This document shows positions 9,055 through 20,949 of a DNA stretch of 64,000 nt, one piece after another. Both the position numbers and the translations under genes were made by a program. Numbering within the stretch: the stretch's first letter is position 1; each line of letters begins with the position of its first letter. Below the pieces are notes generated by a model. The model saw only the letters and a list, made by a program, of their open reading frames with translations. It had not been told where the DNA came from and ran no database searches. This DNA is from a virus (lineage: Duplodnaviria; Caudoviricetes). The stretch spans positions 1-64,000 of the IMG/VR virus record IMGVR_UViG_3300037067_016725; one strand, given 5' to 3'.

Positions 9055-10716
9055 ATGGCCATCAAGAAAACAGCAAATGCTGATTGTATTACATCCAAAG
9101 TTGATCGCAATGCCTGGTTGAATGCTACCTCCAAAAGAAAAGATGGTAGGATAAAGACTGCCTCTGAGGTACTGTCCCAGTATGATCCTTCCAGGTGGCT
9201 TCTATCTCATGTGACCATCATGGCGTCTGTGGATATCCAGCTGGCTAAGCCTAACGACCCCAAGTCCGATTATTTCATCAAACCCGAGCATAGCATCTTT
9301 GTGAACAACAATGGTGACTGCTGGGAAAGGGAACTCCTTGCCAAGACGTATAGGACTTTCCTTGGTGCCAACAACTATGTGGAGCATATTCAACAACCTG
9401 AGTTTGCAAGAGGAAAGGTAGTTGATGTAGCCCTTCGTGAGGTAGACCTGGGATTGGATGCCCATGGTAAACCCAACAACACTTTGTATGTAGACCTTCT
9501 TATTGCTACTAGCTGGGAATTCCCAGATATGTGCCAGAAGATTCTCAGCGGGGAGTACAATGCAGTCAGCATGGGTTGCTTAATTGCCTATTCTCGCTGC
9601 AGCCGTTGTGGTAATGTTGCTCATGATGATTCTGAACAGTGCGAGCATGTACAACTCTATCGCAGAAATACTTTCTATGATGAATATGGGAACAAGCGAA
9701 TCATCGCAGAAATCTGTGGACATAAGGATGACCCAAAGAGTGTGAACTTTATGGATGCCTCCTGGGTAAGGAAGCCTGCATTCCCTGGAGCAGTTCTTCG
9801 AAATATTGTATCTCCACAGGAATCCATAGCTGCAAATATTACTAAGGCAGCTATTAAGGGTAGCAATGACCCCCTGATGGAATCTGTGCAGTCTAGAGCT
9901 ATCCTTCAGAGTGAACACCACAGTGTCGATGCTTTTATGAAGGCGGCTTCCCTTAAGGTAGCCGAGGATCCTGCTTCTGAAGAGGACACTAAAGCAGAAC
10001 CTGAAGGTGCTGCAAGATTTGGAGATCCTGCTAAGGAAAGTGCTTTCCCAGAGATGCCCGCGGATCCATCTGCAGAAGGTGGGGATCCCTCTGCATCAGG
10101 AGCAGCTCCTGATGCAAGTGCTGACCCCACAGCAGAACAGCCTGATGCTCCTAAGACTTCTCCTGAAGAAGCGGACTCTACTCCATTCTCTGATATCCAA
10201 CAGAACATAGAGGATTCCGTTGTTACCCAGGTGAAGCAGAACCTTTTGGATAAAGTTCAGAAAGCTTTGGCTACAAAGACTGATTCTGAAGTCATCGGTG
10301 ATGGCATTAACAGGTATATAGACGCTACCAGGCAGGGTGAGGCCTTTGTTAAGGAGGCATCCTCTAAGACGGTATCTAAATATCTACAGGACAGATATTC
10401 CATAGACATCACCAAGGTACCCAATGTAAAACTGGCTTCCTCCCTAATGGCTTTTGCATCCGTCGGGGATGTTAACCTACTTAGGAAGTATGGGTTTACA
10501 AGAAAGGATATGGTAGAGGTTCTTGCTTTCGTATCAAGTCGCATGACAGGGAAAAAAGTTGGGGATGATGTTGCAGAGTATATCGCCAAAACTGCAGGTA
10601 ATCCAAGTGTGGATTACAACCTGGGTTTTGTCATAAATGCTGCAAGACCGCTAACTCCTTTTGAAAAAGAAGCGATGGATAGATGGCCCAGGCTCTTGAA
10701 TAAATGGAATACATGA
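9055..10716 (+). CDS. Prohead (capsid maturation) protease with Zn-finger insert and scaffold-like C-terminal extension
   Basis: Lies between portal and scaffold/MCP. Motifs NNNGDCW...NYVEH...ARGKVVD...VSMGC (candidate catalytic His and Ser), CSRCG...CEH, and an acidic Pro/Ala linker. Confidence 0.75.
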   Translation: MAIKKTANADCITSKVDRNAWLNATSKRKDGRIKTASEVLSQYDPSRWLLSHVTIMASVDIQLAKPNDPKSDYFIKPEHSIFVNNNGDCWERELLAKTYRTFLGANNYVEHIQQPEFARGKVVDVALREVDLGLDAHGKPNNTLYVDLLIATSWEFPDMCQKILSGEYNAVSMGCLIAYSRCSRCGNVAHDDSEQCEHVQLYRRNTFYDEYGNKRIIAEICGHKDDPKSVNFMDASWVRKPAFPGAVLRNIVSPQESIAANITKAAIKGSNDPLMESVQSRAILQSEHHSVDAFMKAASLKVAEDPASEEDTKAEPEGAARFGDPAKESAFPEMPADPSAEGGDPSASGAAPDASADPTAEQPDAPKTSPEEADSTPFSDIQQNIEDSVVTQVKQNLLDKVQKALATKTDSEVIGDGINRYIDATRQGEAFVKEASSKTVSKYLQDRYSIDITKVPNVKLASSLMAFASVGDVNLLRKYGFTRKDMVEVLAFVSSRMTGKKVGDDVAEYIAKTAGNPSVDYNLGFVINAARPLTPFEKEAMDRWPRLLNKWNT

Positions 10717-10919: not shown

Positions 10920-11873
10920 ATGTCCAGACAGCGTCTTACAACTAAGGTTGCCGGTGAAGATGTTTACACCATGAATGGTGCTCGTCCCGAAGAAGACAAG
11001 CGCGGTGGAAATGGCTCCGGTGAAGCTTTCAACAAGGCCTACAATATTGGTGGCCCTTCTGACTTCGCCGAAGATCCCATCTCCAAGGCTGAGACTGCAA
11101 AGCTCAATACCGAAGATGGTAAGCGCAATGAGATGAACATTGGTGAGCTTCGCCTTGCTTTCGCAAATGCCATCAAGAATTCTCAGGATGTTCGTGAACA
11201 TGCTTCTAAGTGTGTTACCGCTTCCGAGTGCATGCTTCCCGGTGCTACCGAAGAAGTGATCGCTCAGAATGCTGCTGACCTGATGTTCATGCCTGACTTC
11301 GCCATCGACGGTGTCCTGTCCCGTATGGCCAACCTGGCTGAAGGCGCTATCGACGCAGCCAAGCCGGAAGACCAGAAGCCTGAAGAGAAGGAAGCCGCTT
11401 CTGCTGCTCCTGAAGGTGTTCCTGCTCCTTTCGCTCCTGCTGCTGAAGACAAGAAGCCTGAAGAGAAAGATGCCTCCGCTGAAAAGTCCGCTATGGAAAC
11501 CAAGCTCGCTGAATTGCAGAACGCCGTTGCCGCTCTGACCGAACAGCTTTCTTGCATGAAGGGTGCAGGTGCTCCTGCCCCCACTCCTGATGCAGCTCCT
11601 GCCCCTGCCCCTGCAGGTGACGCCGGTGAAGTGAAGACTGACCTGGATGATGCTGCTACTACTGATGACCTTGATAAGGAACTCGCTGGCGTAGGTGACA
11701 CTGCCAAGACCGCATCCGTGAAGGGTGACGCTCTGGAGTCCATCTTTGCCGCTTACGACCCCGCTCCGGCTATGTCCTCCGCGATGGTCCGTAAAGCTTC
11801 CAGCCATTCTGCTGATGATGAACTTGCCGCTATGTGGGGAAGCACTCCTGACGTGTCTAGCGTGTTCCGCTAA
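10920..11873 (+). CDS. Capsid scaffolding protein
   Basis: Acidic, Ala/Pro-rich, with a coiled coil. Strong codon bias. Directly upstream of decoration and MCP genes. Confidence 0.7.
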   Translation: MSRQRLTTKVAGEDVYTMNGARPEEDKRGGNGSGEAFNKAYNIGGPSDFAEDPISKAETAKLNTEDGKRNEMNIGELRLAFANAIKNSQDVREHASKCVTASECMLPGATEEVIAQNAADLMFMPDFAIDGVLSRMANLAEGAIDAAKPEDQKPEEKEAASAAPEGVPAPFAPAAEDKKPEEKDASAEKSAMETKLAELQNAVAALTEQLSCMKGAGAPAPTPDAAPAPAPAGDAGEVKTDLDDAATTDDLDKELAGVGDTAKTASVKGDALESIFAAYDPAPAMSSAMVRKASSHSADDELAAMWGSTPDVSSVFR

Positions 11874-11961: not shown

Positions 11962-12531
11962 ATGTCTCGTGGAGTAAGTAACAAGATTACTGCCGCCAGG
12001 GAGCTGAATCCTCTCTATCGTGGTACGCTGAATGCATTCTGTGCTATCAGCGACGCCGCCCTGGATCAGGACAACAAGTCCCTGTCTACTCAGGCAGCCG
12101 CAAACACCCTCATCGCCACTGGCAGCATCGGCCTCCTCGCGGGTTCCGTTGTGGCTATCGTCGATGCCGCAACCGTAGGTGCCGCTCTCGCTGATACTGG
12201 CGTATTCGCTGGTATCGTTGGTCTCGCCGTCCGTAACTCGGCTGGTGAAGCTTACGAAAGCACCAACTCCAATGGTTCCGGTGGTATCACCTATCTGCAT
12301 GGCACCAACACCCTGGTGGAAGTTGCCGTGTTCGAAACCGTCGCTTTCAATGCTACCACTCCTCTCACCTATGCCGCTGGTGAAAACCTCTATGCCTCTC
12401 AGAATGGTCTCCTGACCAATGCTGCCGGCCTGGAAGGTGGTGCAGCTGCCGTTGGTGCTACGGTCGTGGCGATTGTCATCGATCCCCCTACCACCAGCAA
12501 CCCGGTCATGGCCGTTCAGCTTCGCGTTTAA
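11962..12531 (+). CDS. Head decoration/cement protein
   Basis: 189 aa, Ala/Gly-rich, YAAGENLYASQNGLLT and IVIDPPT motifs, immediately before the MCP. Confidence 0.7.
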   Translation: MSRGVSNKITAARELNPLYRGTLNAFCAISDAALDQDNKSLSTQAAANTLIATGSIGLLAGSVVAIVDAATVGAALADTGVFAGIVGLAVRNSAGEAYESTNSNGSGGITYLHGTNTLVEVAVFETVAFNATTPLTYAAGENLYASQNGLLTNAAGLEGGAAAVGATVVAIVIDPPTTSNPVMAVQLRV

Positions 12532-12545
12532 GGAGGGACTAGAAA

Positions 12546-13421
12546 ATGTCATTCGCAAAGATGTCCAACGAACAGAGAAATGCCGTCATTGGCAAACATA
12601 TCGGCACTCTTGCCGGTCGTCAACGCATCGCTTCGTCCATGCAGCAGCCGCTGCGTGAACGCCGTGACTACTCCGCCGTAGGTCGTAAGACCTTCGAAGT
12701 GGAAGAACTCCCGGACGGTGCTCTCCCCATCTATGACAAGGACCCCGAGGTAAAGGCCTACGCGGTTTCCGAAGAAGGTGAAAACATTGTTGGTACCTCC
12801 CGTGGTACTCGTGTGCTCTTCCCCTTGTTCGAGCTCGCTTCCAACCCCGAAATCCCTCTGTCCCAGATCAAGGAACGTCGCTTCGACCTAGTCGAGCGCT
12901 CCATGAACCTCGGTAAGGCTCAGATCCAGGCTGCTGAAGACTCTCGCGTCTTCGACGTGCTTGATGCTCTGTCCGTGAACGGGTTCTCCGGTGCGACTCC
13001 GAACCCCCAGGTCAACGTCAACGCTCCTGTGACCCCTGCTGCCTTCATTGATGCCTTCGCTGAGATCGAACAGTGGGACAACCGCGTTGCTCGCGTGTTC
13101 ATGAACGCCCGTGATTTCGCTGACCTGCGTAAGTGGGGACGTGACATCCTGGATATCGAGACCCAGGCCACTCTGTTGAAGACTGGTTTGATGGCTCAGC
13201 TCCACGGCGCTCAGATCATGATCTCCCGTATCGTCGAACCCGGCTACATCTACGTGTGTGCTGAACCTGAATTCCTCGGACGTTTCCCCGTTCGTACGGA
13301 GCTCACGGTTCTATCCGCTGATGATCCTAAGGCTCGCCGTATCGGCTTCTCGATCTTCGAGATGATCGGCGTGGGTGCCTTCAATCCGAAGGCTCTGGCC
13401 CGTATCAAGATCGCTCGCTAA
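12546..13421 (+). CDS. Major capsid protein (compact HK97 fold, encapsulin/linocin-like size)
   Basis: 291 aa, AAGGAGG RBS, strongest codon bias. Motifs IASSMQQPLRERRDY, ELPDGALPIYDKD, FELASNPEI, IQAAED, IGFSIFEMIGVGAFNP. Terminator follows. Confidence 0.88.
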   Translation: MSFAKMSNEQRNAVIGKHIGTLAGRQRIASSMQQPLRERRDYSAVGRKTFEVEELPDGALPIYDKDPEVKAYAVSEEGENIVGTSRGTRVLFPLFELASNPEIPLSQIKERRFDLVERSMNLGKAQIQAAEDSRVFDVLDALSVNGFSGATPNPQVNVNAPVTPAAFIDAFAEIEQWDNRVARVFMNARDFADLRKWGRDILDIETQATLLKTGLMAQLHGAQIMISRIVEPGYIYVCAEPEFLGRFPVRTELTVLSADDPKARRIGFSIFEMIGVGAFNPKALARIKIAR

Positions 13422-13483: not shown

Positions 13484-14320
13484 ATGTCCAAACGGTATAT
13501 CAGGGATATGACAAGATACTGTGAGATAAGATACCATGAAGATGACAACGTGGGGTTTAAGGCATGGGATAAGGCCTTTCGACAGGTGTCCTACTCTTGC
13601 GGCCACCTGATAACTAAAAGGGTGGTAGGGGACATCACTCTACCCAGGGAAGAGTGGGAGTCTCGGTATGGTAAACGAAAGCACCTTTGCCCCGTTTGCA
13701 AGAACATATCCACAGCAAATGATATAAAAGAAAAGTATCCTCAGGTACACAAGGAAATTCTATGCAGGCTAAGTGAGGCAAGGGTGACAGAAAAGTACCA
13801 TTATTTTGACTTGTTTGTCCACGCCTTTACCTTATGCCAGTATTACCGCCGTATAAGATGGTCATTTAGGGGGATGCTAGCAGCATCTATTAACGCCTGG
13901 ATCGTTCTGGATAACCGGTGTGGTGGCCTCATGGAGAAGTCTGTAGAACTCAAATGGGTTTGGGACTTATACAAATACATTGAGGGGATTCGAATGAAAG
14001 ACGAATACCCTGTGGACCCAGAGCCCCCTGGTCTACGATTCTTTAAGGGGGATTGCCTTAACGAGGCCCATGGGGATGACTCCGTTATGGAAGCTATAGC
14101 TAGATCTCCTCAACTGATTTACGGAATACTAGGGAGGGGGAAAGCTAAATCCTTTGACAACCATATGGCCGGGGAAGGGTTTGCAAAGATGCTATCCCAT
14201 GTTGAGGGTTCTGGGTTATTCATGAACTATCTACAGGGAATAGCCTCTCCCCTAGCCCTCTGCATGGCCAGTGGTGAATGGGAAGACACAAAGGCCTGGT
14301 TGCTCAAAACTTACAGATAG
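13484..14320 (+). CDS. Hypothetical protein with CGH...CPVC zinc-binding motif
   Basis: Start moved to ATG 13484 because the 13448 start lies inside the terminator. Confidence 0.55.
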   Translation: MSKRYIRDMTRYCEIRYHEDDNVGFKAWDKAFRQVSYSCGHLITKRVVGDITLPREEWESRYGKRKHLCPVCKNISTANDIKEKYPQVHKEILCRLSEARVTEKYHYFDLFVHAFTLCQYYRRIRWSFRGMLAASINAWIVLDNRCGGLMEKSVELKWVWDLYKYIEGIRMKDEYPVDPEPPGLRFFKGDCLNEAHGDDSVMEAIARSPQLIYGILGRGKAKSFDNHMAGEGFAKMLSHVEGSGLFMNYLQGIASPLALCMASGEWEDTKAWLLKTYR

Positions 14321-14329
14321 ATATCCCCA

Positions 14330-14341
14330 TAATCTTTTTAT
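14330..14341 (+). promoter_or_regulatory. Late promoter motif variant TAATCTTTTTAT
   Basis: One mismatch, 20 nt before ATG 14361. Confidence 0.55.
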
Positions 14342-14360
14342 GGGTGAGGTGTTTTCCATA

Positions 14361-15416
14361 ATGGAAAACACCCTACTTATAGAGAAACTAGATAAGGTTG
14401 CTGACGAACTGCAGAACCGCGGTTTATATCGCCTAGCTTCTGATATTGACCAAGTCAGCAACACCCTGATGAAGGTGTCCCCCGACCTAGGTCTAGTGGA
14501 TATCCCCAAAGATGATCTGATCAAAACTGTGCTGTTCAGTGGAGGTACCCAGGGTGATGAAATGACTGGCATCACTCTGATGGGGGAGATTGCAAAGAAC
14601 CCTACGATAGCTAGCCGACCAGGTGTAGACCTTAAATTACAACTATCCAATCCCGCAGCTATCGAAAGGTGTGTTCACTTTATTGATGAGGATCTAAACG
14701 ATTGCTTCAGCATGGAAGACCTCACCAACCCTAATCAAACCAAGTATGAGATGAAGCTGGCTCAGTCCATATTCCAGAATCTGGGTGGTAAAAAAGGCAA
14801 CGTAGACTTAATCGTGGATTTTCACAATACTACTTGCAACATGGGCATAACACTGATAGTGAGCCGGCTTAGTCCTTTTATGTGTAAGCTTGTAGCCACA
14901 TTGACCCATATGTACCCTGATGACCTTAAAATCCTGTATACCCCGGAAGTTCAGGAGACATCCCCTTATCTAGATTCCTTGGGAAAGAACGGGCTGACTG
15001 TTGAGGTAGGACCCCTAAAACATGGCCCCTATCTGAACAAGGTGTCCTATGCTAAGACCAAGAGATTAGCCTCGGATATCATGGATTTTGTGGTCAACTG
15101 GAATTCAGGGAATATCCCGAAAAAGGGTATAACTGTACCGGTATACAGACAAGTGCAGACGATAGAGTATATGGTGGATAAGACCAACATGACTAGGATC
15201 TCCGACATAAATCCAGAGCTCCTAGGGAAGGACTACTCCCCTATAAATAAGGGGGAAATCCTTCAGTACATGCTTGGCACTGGAGAACCTATAAGGTACG
15301 AGGGGACAGAGACGGTGTACCCTGTGTTTATAGAAGAGGCTGCAAAATCATACAGGGATCCTAAATACGGGGATGAGGCCATGGATCTTACCTGGTTGTC
15401 CCATGAGACATGGTAG
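14361..15416 (+). CDS. Aspartoacylase/succinylglutamate desuccinylase (AstE_AspA) family protein with N-terminal helical tag
   Basis: GGTQGDE, NPAA...FIDEDLN, DFHNTTCNMG, VEVGP and YPVFIEEAA match aspartoacylase motifs. Start moved to 14361 (GAGGT RBS). Confidence 0.85.
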   Translation: MENTLLIEKLDKVADELQNRGLYRLASDIDQVSNTLMKVSPDLGLVDIPKDDLIKTVLFSGGTQGDEMTGITLMGEIAKNPTIASRPGVDLKLQLSNPAAIERCVHFIDEDLNDCFSMEDLTNPNQTKYEMKLAQSIFQNLGGKKGNVDLIVDFHNTTCNMGITLIVSRLSPFMCKLVATLTHMYPDDLKILYTPEVQETSPYLDSLGKNGLTVEVGPLKHGPYLNKVSYAKTKRLASDIMDFVVNWNSGNIPKKGITVPVYRQVQTIEYMVDKTNMTRISDINPELLGKDYSPINKGEILQYMLGTGEPIRYEGTETVYPVFIEEAAKSYRDPKYGDEAMDLTWLSHETW

Positions 15417-16418: not shown

Positions 16419-16596
16419 CACCTTTCACTACAAGGTGCATGCATGTCTGGGACTACAAGTGATAGACCCAGCAATAGTATCACTAACCCTATTCCTATGC
16501 TTGCAGAAGCCTGGGGAGGCCAAGGACATTGCTGATAGGATAAGAGGAGAAGAGGGGTGGAAGTGGTTCGCAGAAAGGGATTGTAAAAAATCATAA
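16396..16596 (+). CDS. Small hypothetical protein
   Basis: 66 aa. Its stop coincides with a promoter motif. Confidence 0.4.
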   Translation: MTFSEDRNTFHYKVHACLGLQVIDPAIVSLTLFLCLQKPGEAKDIADRIRGEEGWKWFAERDCKKS

Positions 16597-16605
16597 TCTG
16601 TTAAT
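16594..16605 (+). promoter_or_regulatory. Late promoter motif TAATCTGTTAAT
   Basis: Exact copy upstream of 16644. Confidence 0.7.
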
Positions 16606-16643: not shown

Positions 16644-17288
16644 GTGTCCCAGTATCTTGAAAGCATTGATCCAAGATTGGTTATCCTCCAGTATGGTATG
16701 AGCGTTCCAGTAGGAACTCCCTTACACCTATTAGCCAGGGTAGCCAGTTCCTTGCAGCATCTCAATCCAGAACTTGTCAAGGATTGTGGTATCAGGACTT
16801 TGGGGTTCAAGGATCTAGGGCCCTCTAGGGAGCTATACCCTAATCACGGTTTGTATGTGAATGACAAGCTTTTTCTAAATTCACAGCTGGTAGATGATCC
16901 TACCATCTATGAAGATACTTCGTCTGGCAAAAGGCTTGACACCTTCGATCACATCCTATACCATGAGCTAGGCCATGGGTGGGATGTCCAAAAAGGGGGA
17001 GGCACCGAGCTATCCCTGCAGCCTGAGTGGCTGGGTCTTTCAGGGTGGGTAAACAACCCTCTACCTGGTAAGGTTAAGGTAATTATACAGGACAAGGATG
17101 AGCTGGAACCCTTAGAGGATCACGGGTGGTATTATGATCCTGGTTCCAAGTTTGTGAGATATTATGCTCGATGGAATCCTTGGGACGACTTTGCAGATAC
17201 TTTTAGTTTTTTGGTGGCGGGTATGAATGGTTTCTTACCCGAAGAGAAAAAGGCGTATTTTGACGACCGTATGAAGGACTATCTATGA
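16644..17288 (+). CDS. HEXXH zinc metallopeptidase-like protein
   Basis: ILYHELGHGWD plus downstream YARWNPWDDFADTF. Confidence 0.7.
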   Translation: MSQYLESIDPRLVILQYGMSVPVGTPLHLLARVASSLQHLNPELVKDCGIRTLGFKDLGPSRELYPNHGLYVNDKLFLNSQLVDDPTIYEDTSSGKRLDTFDHILYHELGHGWDVQKGGGTELSLQPEWLGLSGWVNNPLPGKVKVIIQDKDELEPLEDHGWYYDPGSKFVRYYARWNPWDDFADTFSFLVAGMNGFLPEEKKAYFDDRMKDYL

Positions 17289-20197
17289 GCAACGAGAAGC
17301 AGGCAGGTTTATTCTGGGGTCCCGGTATAGCCAAGCACAGAAGGATACCTACTTTGGATTTGTCCAGGGTAGAGAAGCTAATTAAAAACCCCCAGGGTAT
17401 GCAGCAACACCTGGCTGTCATGCTTAATGACTTGAATGCCATCCGAGAAAATGGCAGTGACTTCCCCGATATTAGAAAGTACGTGTCAGAATTTGAGCAA
17501 AAATTCAGGCAATCCATAAAGGTCCTTAATGATCGTGGCCTATGGCCCCACTACAACTCTGAGCTATTCCAGAAGTACGTGAGGGATGAGCTAGGGATGA
17601 AAGAAAGGACCGCCTCAGAGAAAGATGTTCCTGAGACCCTGCTTCACAACCTGAATAAGTTTGTAGAAGTGTTTCCAAAGATTGCCCTTCAGGCATACAA
17701 AAATCTGTCTGAGTTCAAGGACCCCAACTATGTGAACGAACTGAAGAAGATTCTTTATGATCTGTTCCTTGGAGAAGGTGGACTGGAAGAGAGGGCAGAA
17801 GCCCTTCGTGCAATGTTGGAAGCCAACGCCCCAGAAGATAAGGGCAAGGAAGAGGAAGAGAATAAGAAAGGGATTTCCATGAAGGGGATGGAAGACCGCA
17901 TCCGATGGTTTCATGAGGATGGGTCGGAAGCTATGGCTAAGGCCCTACGTGTGTTGATCGCACGAAAGACACCTAGCAATGATAAGGGAAAAATCCCTGC
18001 ATACATGCAGGCGGTGAAGGACATAGAGCGGAACACCATTATTAAGGAATGGGGAGGTCGTGTGGTGAAGGCTCTGAAGGATCATGGCTTTCACGTAGAT
18101 GGGTCTTTTGATCCAAAGAAATTCGAAGAAGCTGATCGTAAATTCCAGGACTTTATCCGTATGGCCTCAGAGGAGGACTTGGGTACAGGTACCCATTTCT
18201 TCAAGGACATGCAGGGAGCTTACCAGTCATATAAGAAAGCTCTTGAAGTTTACAAGGACGACCCTGCTATGACTAAGAAGGTAGTAGATTCATACTACCT
18301 GATAGTGCTAGAGGGAAAGAGGAATGCCTACTCTGCCTTGAAGGACTATCACAGCCAGGTAAAGGAAATGGATGTGGATTCCTTAACCTCTACGGGTGCT
18401 CCTGCAGAAGAGAAGCAAGAAGAAACTCCTGCCGAGAAAAGTAAGGAAGAACCCACGCAAGAGGAAAAACCTAAGGAAGAAGGACCTTCCTCGGTTGAAG
18501 ACACTACGGAGAAAAAGGAAGCACCTTCTTCAGAAGAGAGTAATTCCCCTAAGGAGGAAAAGCAAGAGACTTCTTCCCCAGCAAAGGACACTCCTCAGGA
18601 GACAGAGGAAGACCCCGGAACTATCCTTAAGGCTTTATATAGAAATGGGGACGGGGACATACTCAAGGCACTCCTGGATACCGCTGCAGACCATAACCTG
18701 CTGTGGAACTTCGATACCAATTTTGAAAACAAAAAGATATATCAGGATAGACTTGAAGACATCTCCAAAGGTGTCCAAGGTAAAGTAATTATCCCTGAAG
18801 AATTCCGTAAGAATACCGGTCTGCTTAACTATTTCTTCCGTAGTGAGCTATCGCCCACTGGTAAGGTTCTAAATCTGCTGCGAGAAGAGATTAGAAAGCC
18901 CTCAGCAAATATTGGGAGAATCCAATCTGAGATCCTGAGACTGTCTAAGGATTCCCCCACGACATTGGAAGGGGTTTCAAAGGCGTATAACGAAGAGGAA
19001 GCCAAGAAGTCAGAGCCTAAAAAGGTAGAGACAAAGAAGGTAGAGCCCTCTGCAGGTAAAAAGAAAAAGAAAGAAGTGGTGGAAGAGCTGAAGGGTATCT
19101 CCAAGGATCTTCCTACACCCGACACAGCTATTCCTCAAGATCAAGAGAAAAAGGTAGAGGAAGCAAAATCTTTGGCAGAGGACGGAGGAGAATCCCAGAA
19201 AAAGGATATCTCCCTTTCAGAGGGTATAGTTCAAAATGTATCCGATAGCCTAGAGACAGCACTGGACTCTTTGGAAAAAGAAGATGCTGAGGACGTCATA
19301 AGTTACCTGGATAAAGTTCTGCTTCAGGTTAACAAGTCCTTGAAAAGCAAGGTAGAAGACCCTGAGAGGAAGAAGGCTATCTCTTCTCGCTTAGAAGCCC
19401 TGGTAGGGAAGTCTTCAAAGCTCATAACCTCTGAGGTACTGTCTTCAGATGAAAAGAAAGATAAACTTGTAGAGATTCTCAACAAGTTCTTGAAGGATTT
19501 TGAGAGCATAAGCGATGGACTCCAGGAACAGGAAAAGAAGATTCTGGAGGAGATTAGAGCTCTTAACCATTTCCCCTCTCATGACATTCTCAATAAGGAT
19601 GTAACCAACCTCATCCAAAGTGTTCAGACACTTGTGCCTGAGGAAGAACCGGCAGATACCTCCCCTGTAGAGACGGTAGAAAATGTCACCTCAGAGGCAG
19701 AGGGAACCCCTGCAGCACCTGCTGAAGCTACCACAAGTAAGTGGGAAGAGCCGGGGGTTCAGTTCAGTAAAATAGTTAGAGGTTTCGGGGACTTTGTCGC
19801 TAAGAACGATTACGATGTTCCTTCCTTTATGTTGGATTTTGCTGAAAAGATTCCTCATAAAAAGTCTGTGGTACGGGCATTAGGGGAAGACTCTAGTCAA
19901 GCAGAAAGATTAAGAAAATCTTTTGATAGCTTGGATAAAGAAGTAAGTGCAGGCGGGTCTGTGGAAGAGGTAGGGGCAAAACTATCCATGGTCCTTCAGG
20001 AACTTCACGAGCTCATAGATGACGGTGACATAGAGGAAATGTTTAATAGTCTAAAGAGTGAAGAAGCTGTTGCTAAGACTGCCTTAAATAAAAATAAGGT
20101 ATTCACTAAGTTGGCTTCGGAGAAAGGTAAAGACAAGGTAGTTACAGCAGCAATGCTCGGGTTCTTTAACAAAAAGCAAGGAAGGAAAGAGATATGA
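17285..20197 (+). CDS. Large acidic putative internal head/ejected protein
   Basis: 970 aa, E/K-rich low-complexity linkers. KQAG, RTAS, RMAS, KTAL and KLAS sites. Confidence 0.5.
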   Translation: MSNEKQAGLFWGPGIAKHRRIPTLDLSRVEKLIKNPQGMQQHLAVMLNDLNAIRENGSDFPDIRKYVSEFEQKFRQSIKVLNDRGLWPHYNSELFQKYVRDELGMKERTASEKDVPETLLHNLNKFVEVFPKIALQAYKNLSEFKDPNYVNELKKILYDLFLGEGGLEERAEALRAMLEANAPEDKGKEEEENKKGISMKGMEDRIRWFHEDGSEAMAKALRVLIARKTPSNDKGKIPAYMQAVKDIERNTIIKEWGGRVVKALKDHGFHVDGSFDPKKFEEADRKFQDFIRMASEEDLGTGTHFFKDMQGAYQSYKKALEVYKDDPAMTKKVVDSYYLIVLEGKRNAYSALKDYHSQVKEMDVDSLTSTGAPAEEKQEETPAEKSKEEPTQEEKPKEEGPSSVEDTTEKKEAPSSEESNSPKEEKQETSSPAKDTPQETEEDPGTILKALYRNGDGDILKALLDTAADHNLLWNFDTNFENKKIYQDRLEDISKGVQGKVIIPEEFRKNTGLLNYFFRSELSPTGKVLNLLREEIRKPSANIGRIQSEILRLSKDSPTTLEGVSKAYNEEEAKKSEPKKVETKKVEPSAGKKKKKEVVEELKGISKDLPTPDTAIPQDQEKKVEEAKSLAEDGGESQKKDISLSEGIVQNVSDSLETALDSLEKEDAEDVISYLDKVLLQVNKSLKSKVEDPERKKAISSRLEALVGKSSKLITSEVLSSDEKKDKLVEILNKFLKDFESISDGLQEQEKKILEEIRALNHFPSHDILNKDVTNLIQSVQTLVPEEEPADTSPVETVENVTSEAEGTPAAPAEATTSKWEEPGVQFSKIVRGFGDFVAKNDYDVPSFMLDFAEKIPHKKSVVRALGEDSSQAERLRKSFDSLDKEVSAGGSVEEVGAKLSMVLQELHELIDDGDIEEMFNSLKSEEAVAKTALNKNKVFTKLASEKGKDKVVTAAMLGFFNKKQGRKEI

Positions 20198-20856
20198 GTA
20201 CATTCGATAAAATGTTTGGTGGGAACAGGCAGGTGAAGACAGCCTCTATTCCTTCGGCAATGATTCCAGTATCCACGGGTACTGGAAAAGAAATGCTGAT
20301 CAGCTTACTGCAGGAGGACCTAAAGCTAGAGTATACCGCGGCTTTGCAGTATCTCCAGCATTATGCCGTTATGCAGGGGGCAGAGTTCGACAACATTCGT
20401 AAGCACATCAAGGAGCATGCCGACCAGGAAATGGAGCATGCAGTAACAGTCGCTGACCGTATTGTGAAACTGGGTGCAGAGCCAGTAATATCCTTGGATG
20501 AGATAAAGGTCTCTCCTGAATCAGCTACCATGCTGGAACAGGACCTGTCTGGGGAGCAGACTGCCATCCAACGCTATAAGCAAAGAATTGTCCAAGCTAT
20601 GTCCCTAGGGGAGTTTGGAGCTGCTGATGAGCTCATGGATATCCTCGTGGATGAAGAAGAGCATGAACAGGACATTCTGACTTCCCTGGGTGGACGTAGT
20701 CAGGAAAGCACCTCTATTGCTGTTTCTGTGGCCGTAGAGCCTGCTCAAGGGTCTGGCTACGTTTCTGACGATGCAAAGGTCAAGGAATTGGAGAAAAGCC
20801 GTGAGGAACGCCGAGTACAGGTGTTCCAGAAACTGGCTTCTTTGAAAAAAGCATAA
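20194..20856 (+). CDS. bfr: Bacterioferritin with N- and C-terminal extensions
   Basis: Ferroxidase pattern LEYTAALQY...QEMEHA...RIVKLG...DLSGEQ...EEEHE. The heme-ligand Met in EMxH is retained. Confidence 0.88.
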   Translation: MSTFDKMFGGNRQVKTASIPSAMIPVSTGTGKEMLISLLQEDLKLEYTAALQYLQHYAVMQGAEFDNIRKHIKEHADQEMEHAVTVADRIVKLGAEPVISLDEIKVSPESATMLEQDLSGEQTAIQRYKQRIVQAMSLGEFGAADELMDILVDEEEHEQDILTSLGGRSQESTSIAVSVAVEPAQGSGYVSDDAKVKELEKSREERRVQVFQKLASLKKA

Positions 20857-20865
20857 TCTCCTAAT
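20854..20865 (+). promoter_or_regulatory. Late promoter motif TAATCTCCTAAT
   Basis: Exact copy overlapping the bfr stop codon. Confidence 0.7.
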
Positions 20866-20949
20866 TGAAATTCTGGCAAAGATAAAGGGAAGGGGCTATC
20901 AAAGGCCCCTTCCTGCATAAGACATAGAAAAAACACACAGGAGAAAACT

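Follow-up and report, generated by a model that had tools for sequence, protein, structure and literature searches.

What does a ferritin-like protein with an extension at each end do in a giant, uncultured tailed phage, where its gene lies just downstream of the genes for the head? This question is raised by the window analyzed here, which comprises the initial 64 kb of an IMG/VR contig of 115.5 kb (IMGVR_UViG_3300037067_016725; CheckV completeness 25%), in which one open reading frame (ORF) encodes such a protein of 220 amino acids (Table 1). A first-pass annotation had read it as a bacterioferritin carried as virion cargo, a viral parallel of the encapsulin-ferritin arrangement. On balance, we lean toward the view that the window ferritin is a ferroxidase that is directed into the capsid and trimmed by the head protease. 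Shell cargo appears to be the best reading because the extensions of the protein are phage-specific, its gene keeps a fixed position, relatives are fused to a protease or tagged, and the motifs at its ends are shared with the portal.

Translation of positions 20194-20856 of the plus strand reproduced both termini quoted in the first-pass annotation (MSTFDKMFGGNRQVKTAS at the N-terminus and VFQKLASLKKA at the C-terminus). Pfam placed a ferritin domain (PF00210) at residues 37-161 (E = 3.7e-25). The six di-iron ligands E46, E79, H82, E121, E154 and H157 correspond to the canonical intrasubunit set of bacterioferritin (Bfr; E18, E51, H54, E94, E127 and H130), were invariant in a 16-sequence family alignment and were kept in at least 76 of 81 wider relatives. 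The claim of an intact core of ferroxidase and heme motifs was therefore borne out for the ferroxidase ligands and, as a property of this protein, for the heme ligand: Met80 occupies the position of Bfr Met52, but Met is found there in only 13 of the 81 relatives (29 have Leu and 20 Ile). Heme binding is thus possible for the window ferritin and is not a trait of the family. The name bacterioferritin proved to be loose. Because the NCBIfam model for Bfr (TIGR00754) scored the protein at 45.7 bits against a cut-off of 125.55, it is not a true bacterioferritin in the strict sense, and the fifth (E) helix of Bfr was not seen in the structural model, where a linker of low confidence begins after helix D, whose last residue is 166.

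The AlphaFold 2 model used here is a monomer prediction built on 81 sequences, with an overall per-residue confidence score (pLDDT) of 92. Four core helices were modeled at residues 32-59, 63-92, 110-137 and 141-166 with pLDDTs of 97-99, and the best fold matches were four-helix proteins that assemble as 12-mers rather than as the 24-mer cage of Bfr. Mini-bacterioferritins were ranked first by Foldseek (9qq5 and 9qq4; template modeling scores of 0.95 and 0.93, root-mean-square deviation 1.1 over 134 columns, 32% identity), and the core is accordingly modeled as a four-helix mini-bacterioferritin fold. When the PDB was searched by sequence, the best matches were 9viw (top, E = 1.4e-13), an encapsulin-targeted double ferritin (TmDFLP; bioRxiv 10.1101/2025.09.13.676036), 2vzb, a dodecameric DpsL, and 9qq4, the newly defined mini-bacterioferritin Mper-mBfr (PMC13168243). 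Like Mper-mBfr, the window ferritin has a core of four helices only and a di-iron site of the canonical intrasubunit kind. By definition, mini-bacterioferritins lack extensions at either terminus and strictly conserve the heme Met (PMC13168243), whereas the window ferritin has both extensions and its relatives mostly have Leu or Ile at the Met position. Among the signature residues, Gly34 is kept as Gly62 (74/81 relatives), Met52 corresponds to Met80, which is not conserved among relatives, and His29 aligns to Tyr57, with His56 adjoining. Membership of the Dps family was considered and rejected on the basis of the intrasubunit ligand set and the scores of Dps family hidden Markov models (HMMs), which were far under their cut-offs (16.9-43.6 bits).

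In the model, the core is flanked by an N-terminal extension of 31 residues (pLDDT 88-95) and a C-terminal tail of 54 residues, made up of a linker (residues 167-193) and a helix (residues 194-219, pLDDT 92-94). Close metagenomic relatives numbered 13 (44-95% identity), 9 of which span the full query. All members of what we term group A (P0002-P0010 together with P0018 and P0019, the last two from an exhaustive search) have the leader, in which a hydrophobic F-x-x-[MIL]-[FY]-G is followed by [VI]-K-[TA]-[AS]-x-[IV]-P. The tail of P0002-P0010 consists of a variable linker and then a helix ending K-L-A-x-L-K-K-A, and KLASL-type ends were present in P0012, P0020, P0021 and P0030. The exhaustive search returned 1,583 relatives at E up to 0.001, many of them core-only proteins of 134-150 amino acids; neither leader nor tail was seen in a recognizably cellular context among the best 150, most contexts being unexamined. 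Compared across these relatives, the extensions appear to be specific to the phage lineage and conserved within it, in agreement with the first-pass annotation. When HMMs of the two extensions were run against the 115-kb contig, neither had a significant match elsewhere; the two neighboring genes gave short echoes at the level of motifs only, and the extensions are therefore not a portable domain in this contig. In GenBank phages, DNA and protein searches turned up nothing beyond a trivial match of 62 nt to Pseudomonas phages and a single unannotated fecal contig. We propose that the leader serves as a propeptide or capsid-targeting leader, that the motif V-K-T-A-S-I-P-S at its end is a prohead-protease site with a putative cut between A17 and S18, and that the C-terminal helix docks the protein to shell or scaffold.

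The window belongs to a phage-G-like megaphage, because its major capsid protein matches phage G gp27 and has its tblastn relatives in this group: it is 65% identical to that of the 485-kb uncultured phage LR745208, 47% to that of Tunturiibacter phage Tunturi_5 and 38% to that of phage G. The capsid protein had been described in the first-pass annotation as compact and encapsulin-like. At 291 amino acids it is compact, but it is of the gp27 type and had no Pfam match whatever, the encapsulin family (PF04454) included; an AlphaFold 2 model from a 7-sequence alignment was too poor for use (pLDDT 47). In related phages, the ferritin gene is found in the same surroundings. The order of genes for the 214-aa protein, a protein of ~920-1150 amino acids, ferritin, homologues of the 462-aa and 431-aa proteins, a Zn-ribbon protein and fibers is kept in L003/L008, L007 and L005/6. 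L028, whose capsid protein is 64% identical, has a homologue of the 214-aa HExxH protein, a ferritin and the same downstream genes without the ~1000-aa protein. More distant ferritin homologues lie two genes after a head-tail connector gene (L009) or within 4-7 kb of homologues of the protease and capsid protein (L010 and L011). By this conserved gene order, the position of the ferritin gene immediately after the head genes is fixed in several related megaphages.

Relatives of the window ferritin also carry other modules at their ends. Two that rank among the closest beyond the set of orthologues, P0026 (630 amino acids; L016:5714-7606) and P0037 (735 amino acids; L017:6393-8600), have ferritin cores 51% and 45% identical to that of the window, in which the ligands are kept and which are followed by a conserved tail ending ES[VL]KLFD. 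Their N-terminal ~230 residues are a prohead protease according to Pfam (S78, 21.9 bits against a cut-off of 21), PHROGs (phrog_80 down to 4e-16, also phrog_617 and phrog_3244) and tblastn, which gave 31-34% identity to annotated prohead proteases of cultured phages (3e-16). Both genes are located between a portal gene (PF04860 plus Mu_F) and an HK97-type capsid gene (PF05065). The fusions thus have in common with the window ferritin the subfamily, all ligands and a place inside the head module, and differ from it in the covalent link, the protease/scaffold slot and the HK97-type head module; the window ferritin is encoded separately, has a leader and a tail of its own and belongs to a megaphage whose capsid protein is of the gp27 type. 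As predicted from their domains, these fusions physically link a ferritin domain to the machinery of capsid maturation. Of the nine best matches in a structure search of BFVD, three are named 'Prohead protease' and several are long 'Dps' proteins or fusions of uncultured phages. A search for longer homologues gave no further fused forms from P0001 and only P0026 and P0037 from P0026, and IMG/VR scans with P0026 and P0025 found nothing. As a separate observation, P0026 and P0037 come from small-phage contigs and place a long linker between the S78-type protease and the complete ferritin core, with a Cys-rich, zinc-ribbon-like insert in the linker of P0037.

A different module was found in P0025, P0028 and P0072, where a two-helix tag of the form LDKVA...NTL directly precedes the ferritin core (E 1e-9 to 1e-5). 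P0072 is encoded in L028 as the syntenic counterpart of the window ferritin, and five other ORFs of that head region are tagged. An HMM of this ~34-residue tag matched three ORFs in the window and one in the remainder of the contig, and the tag was absent from the window ferritin itself. The 16-kb head region of L028 thus has six ORFs with the tag; a 686-aa protein encoded there (L028:7224-9284) has an N-terminal part homologous to the HExxH protein and an LDKVA tag at its C-terminal end. On the cellular side, the double ferritin P0146 ends in LTVGSL, a family 1 encapsulin targeting peptide. A constant ferritin core with swapped end modules argues that the ends supply one common function, most simply localization to an HK97-fold shell. 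The contexts of P0025, P0021, P0028, P0022 and P0039 were too short or uninformative. Yet another N-terminal helical module, F..L......L.E.I...Y..LFE, is common to P0022, P0039, P0041 and P0049 (L026, L019) and may represent a fourth device for addressing. In P0022 a DUF5661 is present at the C-terminal end, and the L019 and L026 contexts each have a ~436-aa gene upstream.

The motifs at both ends of the window ferritin recur in head proteins. In the first 25 kb of the contig, which comprise the head module, [KR]xAS was found 30 times against 6.3 expected, an enrichment of ~5-fold, and in the rest of the contig 27 times against 16 expected. Several of these sites are not conserved in orthologues; those that are comprise residues 34, 296, 433 and 459 of the protease, 263 and 291 of a separate scaffold-like protein (10920-11873), which has several internal sites, and 27 of the capsid protein. 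Longer forms of the motif are more selective. F.KLAS occurs three times (0.046 expected), each time no more than 30 residues from the C-terminal end, in the portal, the 970-aa protein encoded directly upstream of the ferritin and the ferritin itself. [KR].AS[IV]P likewise occurs three times (0.12 expected), at residue 29 of the portal, at residue 15 of the ferritin and in the 462-aa protein. The portal therefore carries both ferritin-type end motifs, one K-T-A-S-I-P-like and one F-x-K-L-A-S. In phage G, [KR]xAS also brackets the portal (residues 55 and 625 of 648; L020:3048-4994), which suggests that portals of the window/phage G group are trimmed at both ends, and the motif is present in the C-terminal protease tails of phage G, Tunturi_5 and LR745208. 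These positions, together with the sites in the protease tail and the scaffold-like protein, fit a putative recognition code of the prohead protease. A basophilic kinase site (R-x-x-S) was rejected as the main reading of [KR]xAS given that the Ala is invariant, that the motif is concentrated in head proteins and that the protease has sites in its own tail.

Herpesvirus assemblins cleave maturation and release sites of the form (V/L/I)-x-A|S. The candidate phage code resembles these in its Ala-Ser center after a hydrophobic residue and in the location of sites in the C-terminal region of the protease and near the C-termini of scaffold-like proteins. It differs in the basic P3 residue, which is specific to the phage group of the window, and its cut position is inferred by analogy only. 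A second comparison is offered by phage T4, whose internal proteins (IPI-III, Alt) have capsid-targeting sequences that are removed by the gp21 prohead protease. As in T4, a short hydrophobic N-terminal leader is followed by what may be a head-protease consensus (V-K-T-A-S, residues 14-18 of the window ferritin), the passenger is encoded near the head genes and one consensus marks many head proteins. Unlike in T4, this consensus is [KR]-x-A-S rather than L/I-x-E, a C-terminal motif is added, and the payload is a metalloenzyme cage instead of a small basic internal protein; the two phage lineages are unrelated.

Following these comparisons, a mechanism can be outlined. The ferritin would be made late, its translation coupled to that of the charged, helical 970-aa protein, from a unit that follows the head genes. 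Its C-terminal helix (F-x-K-L-A-S-L), its N-terminal leader or both would dock it inside the assembling procapsid, to capsid protein, scaffold or core. The prohead protease would then trim it at V-K-T-A|S, the same [KR]-x-A-S code as in the portal, the protease tail, the scaffold-like protein and the N-terminus of the capsid protein. The folded oligomer, probably a dodecamer by analogy with mini-bacterioferritins, would stay in the DNA-filled head, where its di-iron site could oxidize and sequester Fe(II), consuming O2 or H2O2. This might protect a genome of ~0.4-0.5 Mb from Fenton chemistry, or the ferritin might be delivered into the next host with the DNA. Docking, the position of cleavage, retention in the virion and oligomeric state are steps that we infer, as is the physiological role, whether in Fenton protection or in host iron and reactive oxygen species (ROS), which is the weakest of them.

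The encapsulin-ferritin parallel drawn in the first-pass annotation held in part, in that the comparative evidence favors shell cargo. Family 1 encapsulin systems (EncFtn, TmDFLP/9viw) likewise combine a di-iron ferroxidase of the same branch, a short terminal peptide and association with an HK97-fold shell. In contrast, the shell predicted for the window is a true phage capsid accompanied by portal, protease and tail genes, has no match to PF04454 and gave no sign of being encapsulin-like in the tests made, and the ferritin begins with a leader that bears a putative protease site, a feature absent from encapsulin cargo. The peptide itself is also different: the tail of the window ferritin shares with the encapsulin peptide a mere hydrophobic-small-Ser-Leu resemblance (L-A-S-L versus V-G-S-L). 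Closer to phages, ferritin- or Dps-like proteins were detected by mass spectrometry of virion preparations for phage G (gp346; PMC12484599), SU10 (CDS67; PMC4281155) and Sajous1 (gp217; PMC10892097), none of these reports showing a targeting signal for them. These precedents are alike in that a phage-encoded protein of the ferritin superfamily accompanies particles, in the case of phage G within the capsid lineage of the window. Phage G gp346 differs in being of the Dps type, with an acidic N-terminal extension of ~100 amino acids and a gene among those for replication; without a tblastn match, it is not orthologous. No description of fusions between ferritin or Dps and prohead proteases, or of capsid-addressed phage ferritins, was found in the literature search.

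Several observations weigh against capsid cargo. The evidence for packaging and cleavage of the ferritin and its orthologues is comparative throughout and in no part experimental, and the virion proteomes that provide precedents also list clearly non-structural proteins (phage G particle). The C-terminal K-L-A-S is followed by only four residues, an odd location for a site of cleavage, and orthologues have S, A, N, T or K in its fourth position; this copy may serve docking and not cleavage. F-Q-K-L-A-S-L does not follow the encapsulin cargo consensus [LF]-x-[VI]-x-x-[LI] with its conserved Gly (LTVGSL type). Group B (P0011-P0014, L005/6) is without the leader, although V-M-A-K-L-A-S-L is kept in its tail, and the 150-aa homologue in L009, 48% identical, has no extensions. 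The basic C-terminal helix could bind DNA as Dps tails do, and the extensions, modeled as ordered, could be elements of an oligomer interface rather than free address peptides. A Pfam search of the whole records gave a weak ferritin match for LR745208 and none for Tunturi_5, and the only ferritin-like gene of phage G is the Dps-type gp346 in the replication region. Missing from other G-like megaphages, the ferritin is therefore accessory and not required for assembly.

Some of these points are shared by the alternative that survives best, which we nevertheless regard as unlikely: the ferritin is the product of an ordinary auxiliary gene, stays free in the infected cytoplasm and buffers iron or peroxide, for example serving a di-iron ribonucleotide reductase or countering oxidative stress. 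Under this explanation, the ordered extensions would tune oligomerization or stability, and the position of the gene would reflect late expression. Its accessory distribution and the extension-free homologue in L009 suit such a role, as does a ribonucleotide reductase gene located few genes upstream in L005/6, and free-standing phage Dps and ferritin-like genes are usually read so in papers. What an auxiliary gene leaves unexplained are the fusions to prohead protease between portal and capsid genes, the head-module tag on the syntenic orthologue in L028, the two portal-shared end motifs, which are well beyond chance, and the stable synteny with, and coupling to, the 970-aa protein.

The fusions and the 970-aa protein could instead suggest that the ferritin acts transiently, as an oligomerizing module of a scaffold core that enters the procapsid with the 970-aa protein and is degraded by the protease and expelled, so that the mature virion would not contain it as cargo. 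In P0026 and P0037, the ferritin domain sits between protease and conserved tail, in the slot that scaffold segments occupy in protease-scaffold polyproteins; the window gene is coupled to one for a protein that is long, charged and helical, and protease-type motifs stand at both ends of its product. We consider this quite improbable. The retention of all six ligands across the family points to selection on enzyme activity and not on shape alone, and no [KR]xAS sites were found within the ferritin core, so that the folded oligomer would be expected to survive and would be too large to exit the shell. The scaffold-like protein with its internal sites is moreover already available in the head module. 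Slightly less probable again is a Dps-like DNA protector that coats or condenses replicating or packaged DNA through its C-terminal helix and enters the head passively, if at all, since, for all that this helix is rich in Lys and Arg, that N- and C-terminal tails of Dps and DpsL bind DNA (PMC13168243) and that virion preparations include 'DNA-binding proteins' with a Dps domain, gp346 in phage G and CDS67 in SU10, the tail-end motif common to the portal and the 970-aa protein suggests a shared protein partner or protease, orthologues swap the tail for an LDKVA tag or a protease fusion, neither of which looks DNA-binding, and the conserved leader is left unexplained.

Returning to the ferritin as capsid cargo, a broader proposition can be made, which we hold more tentatively and would call plausible rather than probable. 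Ferritin-like ferroxidases may be recurrent and deliberately loaded cargo of tailed-phage capsids, for which at least three addressing devices (protease fusion, portable helical tag, and leader plus KLASL tail) would have been recruited independently; phage heads and encapsulins would then share an iron strategy of 'enzyme in an HK97 shell', and an assemblin-like processing language of megaphages, [KR]-x-A|S, would mark the entire cargo set. If the window ferritin is indeed capsid cargo, giant phages would have, beside the DNA in their virions, an active nanocage that detoxifies iron, which would form a functional bridge between phage procapsids with internal proteins and encapsulins with ferritin cargo. 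It would also amount to a protection strategy for very large genomes, whose particles possibly persist in iron-rich, redox-active habitats, and would provide testable addressing peptides (leader, KLASL helix and LDKVA tag) along with a candidate protease code with which foreign proteins might be loaded into large capsids.

The positions of the ferritin gene, its parts and the head and unit features discussed here are collected in Table 1.

Table 1 Features of the window that bear on the ferritin and its putative route to the head.
Feature	Position	Strand	Basis and remarks
Portal protein, 628 aa	3012..4898	+	phrog_16240, E = 3.7e-33; R-R-A-S-I-P at residue 29, F-E-K-L-A-S at residue 608
Head maturation protease	9055..10716	+	phrog_18299, E = 4.6e-14; four conserved [KR]xAS sites (kept in L003, L010)
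Major capsid protein, 291 aa, phage G gp27 type	12546..13421	+	phrog_2522, E = 4.2e-52; 6wkk, E = 1.1e-61
Promoter-like motif TAATCTGTTAAT, phage-specific	16594..16605	+	Exact-copy count; opens the three-gene unit ending in ferritin
214-aa protein with HELGH (HExxH) motif	16644..17288	+	Translation; first gene of the unit
970-aa highly charged helical protein	17285..20197	+	Composition, motif
Ferritin-like gene, 220 aa plus stop	20194..20856	+	Pfam, translation; coupled to the 970-aa ORF by ATGA overlap (predicted)
N-terminal leader, residues 1-17 (proposed)	20194..20244	+	Group A conservation; hydrophobic F-x-K-M-F-G-G, then V-K-T-A
Motif V-K-T-A-S-I-P-S, residues 14-21 (putative protease site)	20233..20256	+	[VI]K[TA][AS]x[IV]P conserved in the family
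Four-helix di-iron ferroxidase core, residues 32-166	20287..20691	+	AlphaFold 2, Foldseek, ligand conservation
Low-confidence linker, residues 167-193	20692..20772	+	pLDDT 58-61; orthologues differ in its length and sequence
Basic amphipathic C-terminal helix, residues 194-220, ending F-Q-K-L-A-S-L-K-K-A (proposed docking element)	20773..20853	+	AlphaFold 2, motif
Promoter-like motif, next copy	20854..20865	+	Overlaps the ferritin stop codon
GC-rich hairpin, 9-bp stem, 7 G-C pairs	20888..20913	unassigned	Just 3' of the ferritin gene

The promoter-like word TAATCTNNTAAT occurs in 11 exact copies in the window against 0.18 expected, and the copies at 16594 and 20854 bracket three genes, for the 214-aa HExxH protein, the 970-aa protein and the ferritin. 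As far as can be read from these copies, the late unit claimed in the first-pass annotation is present, and so is the claimed overlap with the 970-aa ORF: the ferritin ATG, which is preceded by a purine-rich ribosome-binding site, overlaps the TGA of that ORF as ATGA at 20194-20197, an arrangement from which the translation of the two is predicted to be coupled. Orthologues of the 214-aa protein were found at 47-61% identity in L003, L005, L007 and L028, adjoining the ferritin in related phages; the protein had no Pfam or PHROG match. The 970-aa protein is rich in Glu (12.4%) and Lys (12.1%), with a net charge of -34 and PEK-rich linkers, and its F-x-K-L-A-S lies 30 residues from the C-terminal end. 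Its orthologues are fast-evolving (24% identity). Pfam, PHROGs and NCBIfam gave nothing for it or for the neighboring 462-aa, 431-aa and 290-aa proteins, and ESM Atlas entries for the 462-aa and 431-aa proteins were uninformative. The 970-aa protein is a candidate for an internal or scaffold-like head protein. The hairpin behind the ferritin gene, which is likely an element of transcript end or stability, lies behind the promoter-like motif at 20854 and ahead of the next gene. Its T-run is on the minus strand; on the plus strand the hairpin is a candidate terminator, RNA stability element or attenuator.

Three further genes near the head module were noted. Directly upstream of the capsid gene, a 189-aa gene (11962-12531) occupies the position of the phage G decoration protein gp26; it had no similarity to phage G by tblastn, and the link to gp26 is positional only. 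In a related megaphage, an OrfB_IS605 (TnpB/Cas12f-like) gene lies just upstream of the head module (L003:1-576, L004:1-621). Finally, an aspartoacylase-like enzyme encoded at 14271-15416 bears the LDKVA tag (residues 35-68), and R-L-A-S-D-I recurs in it as a second stretch at residue 265.

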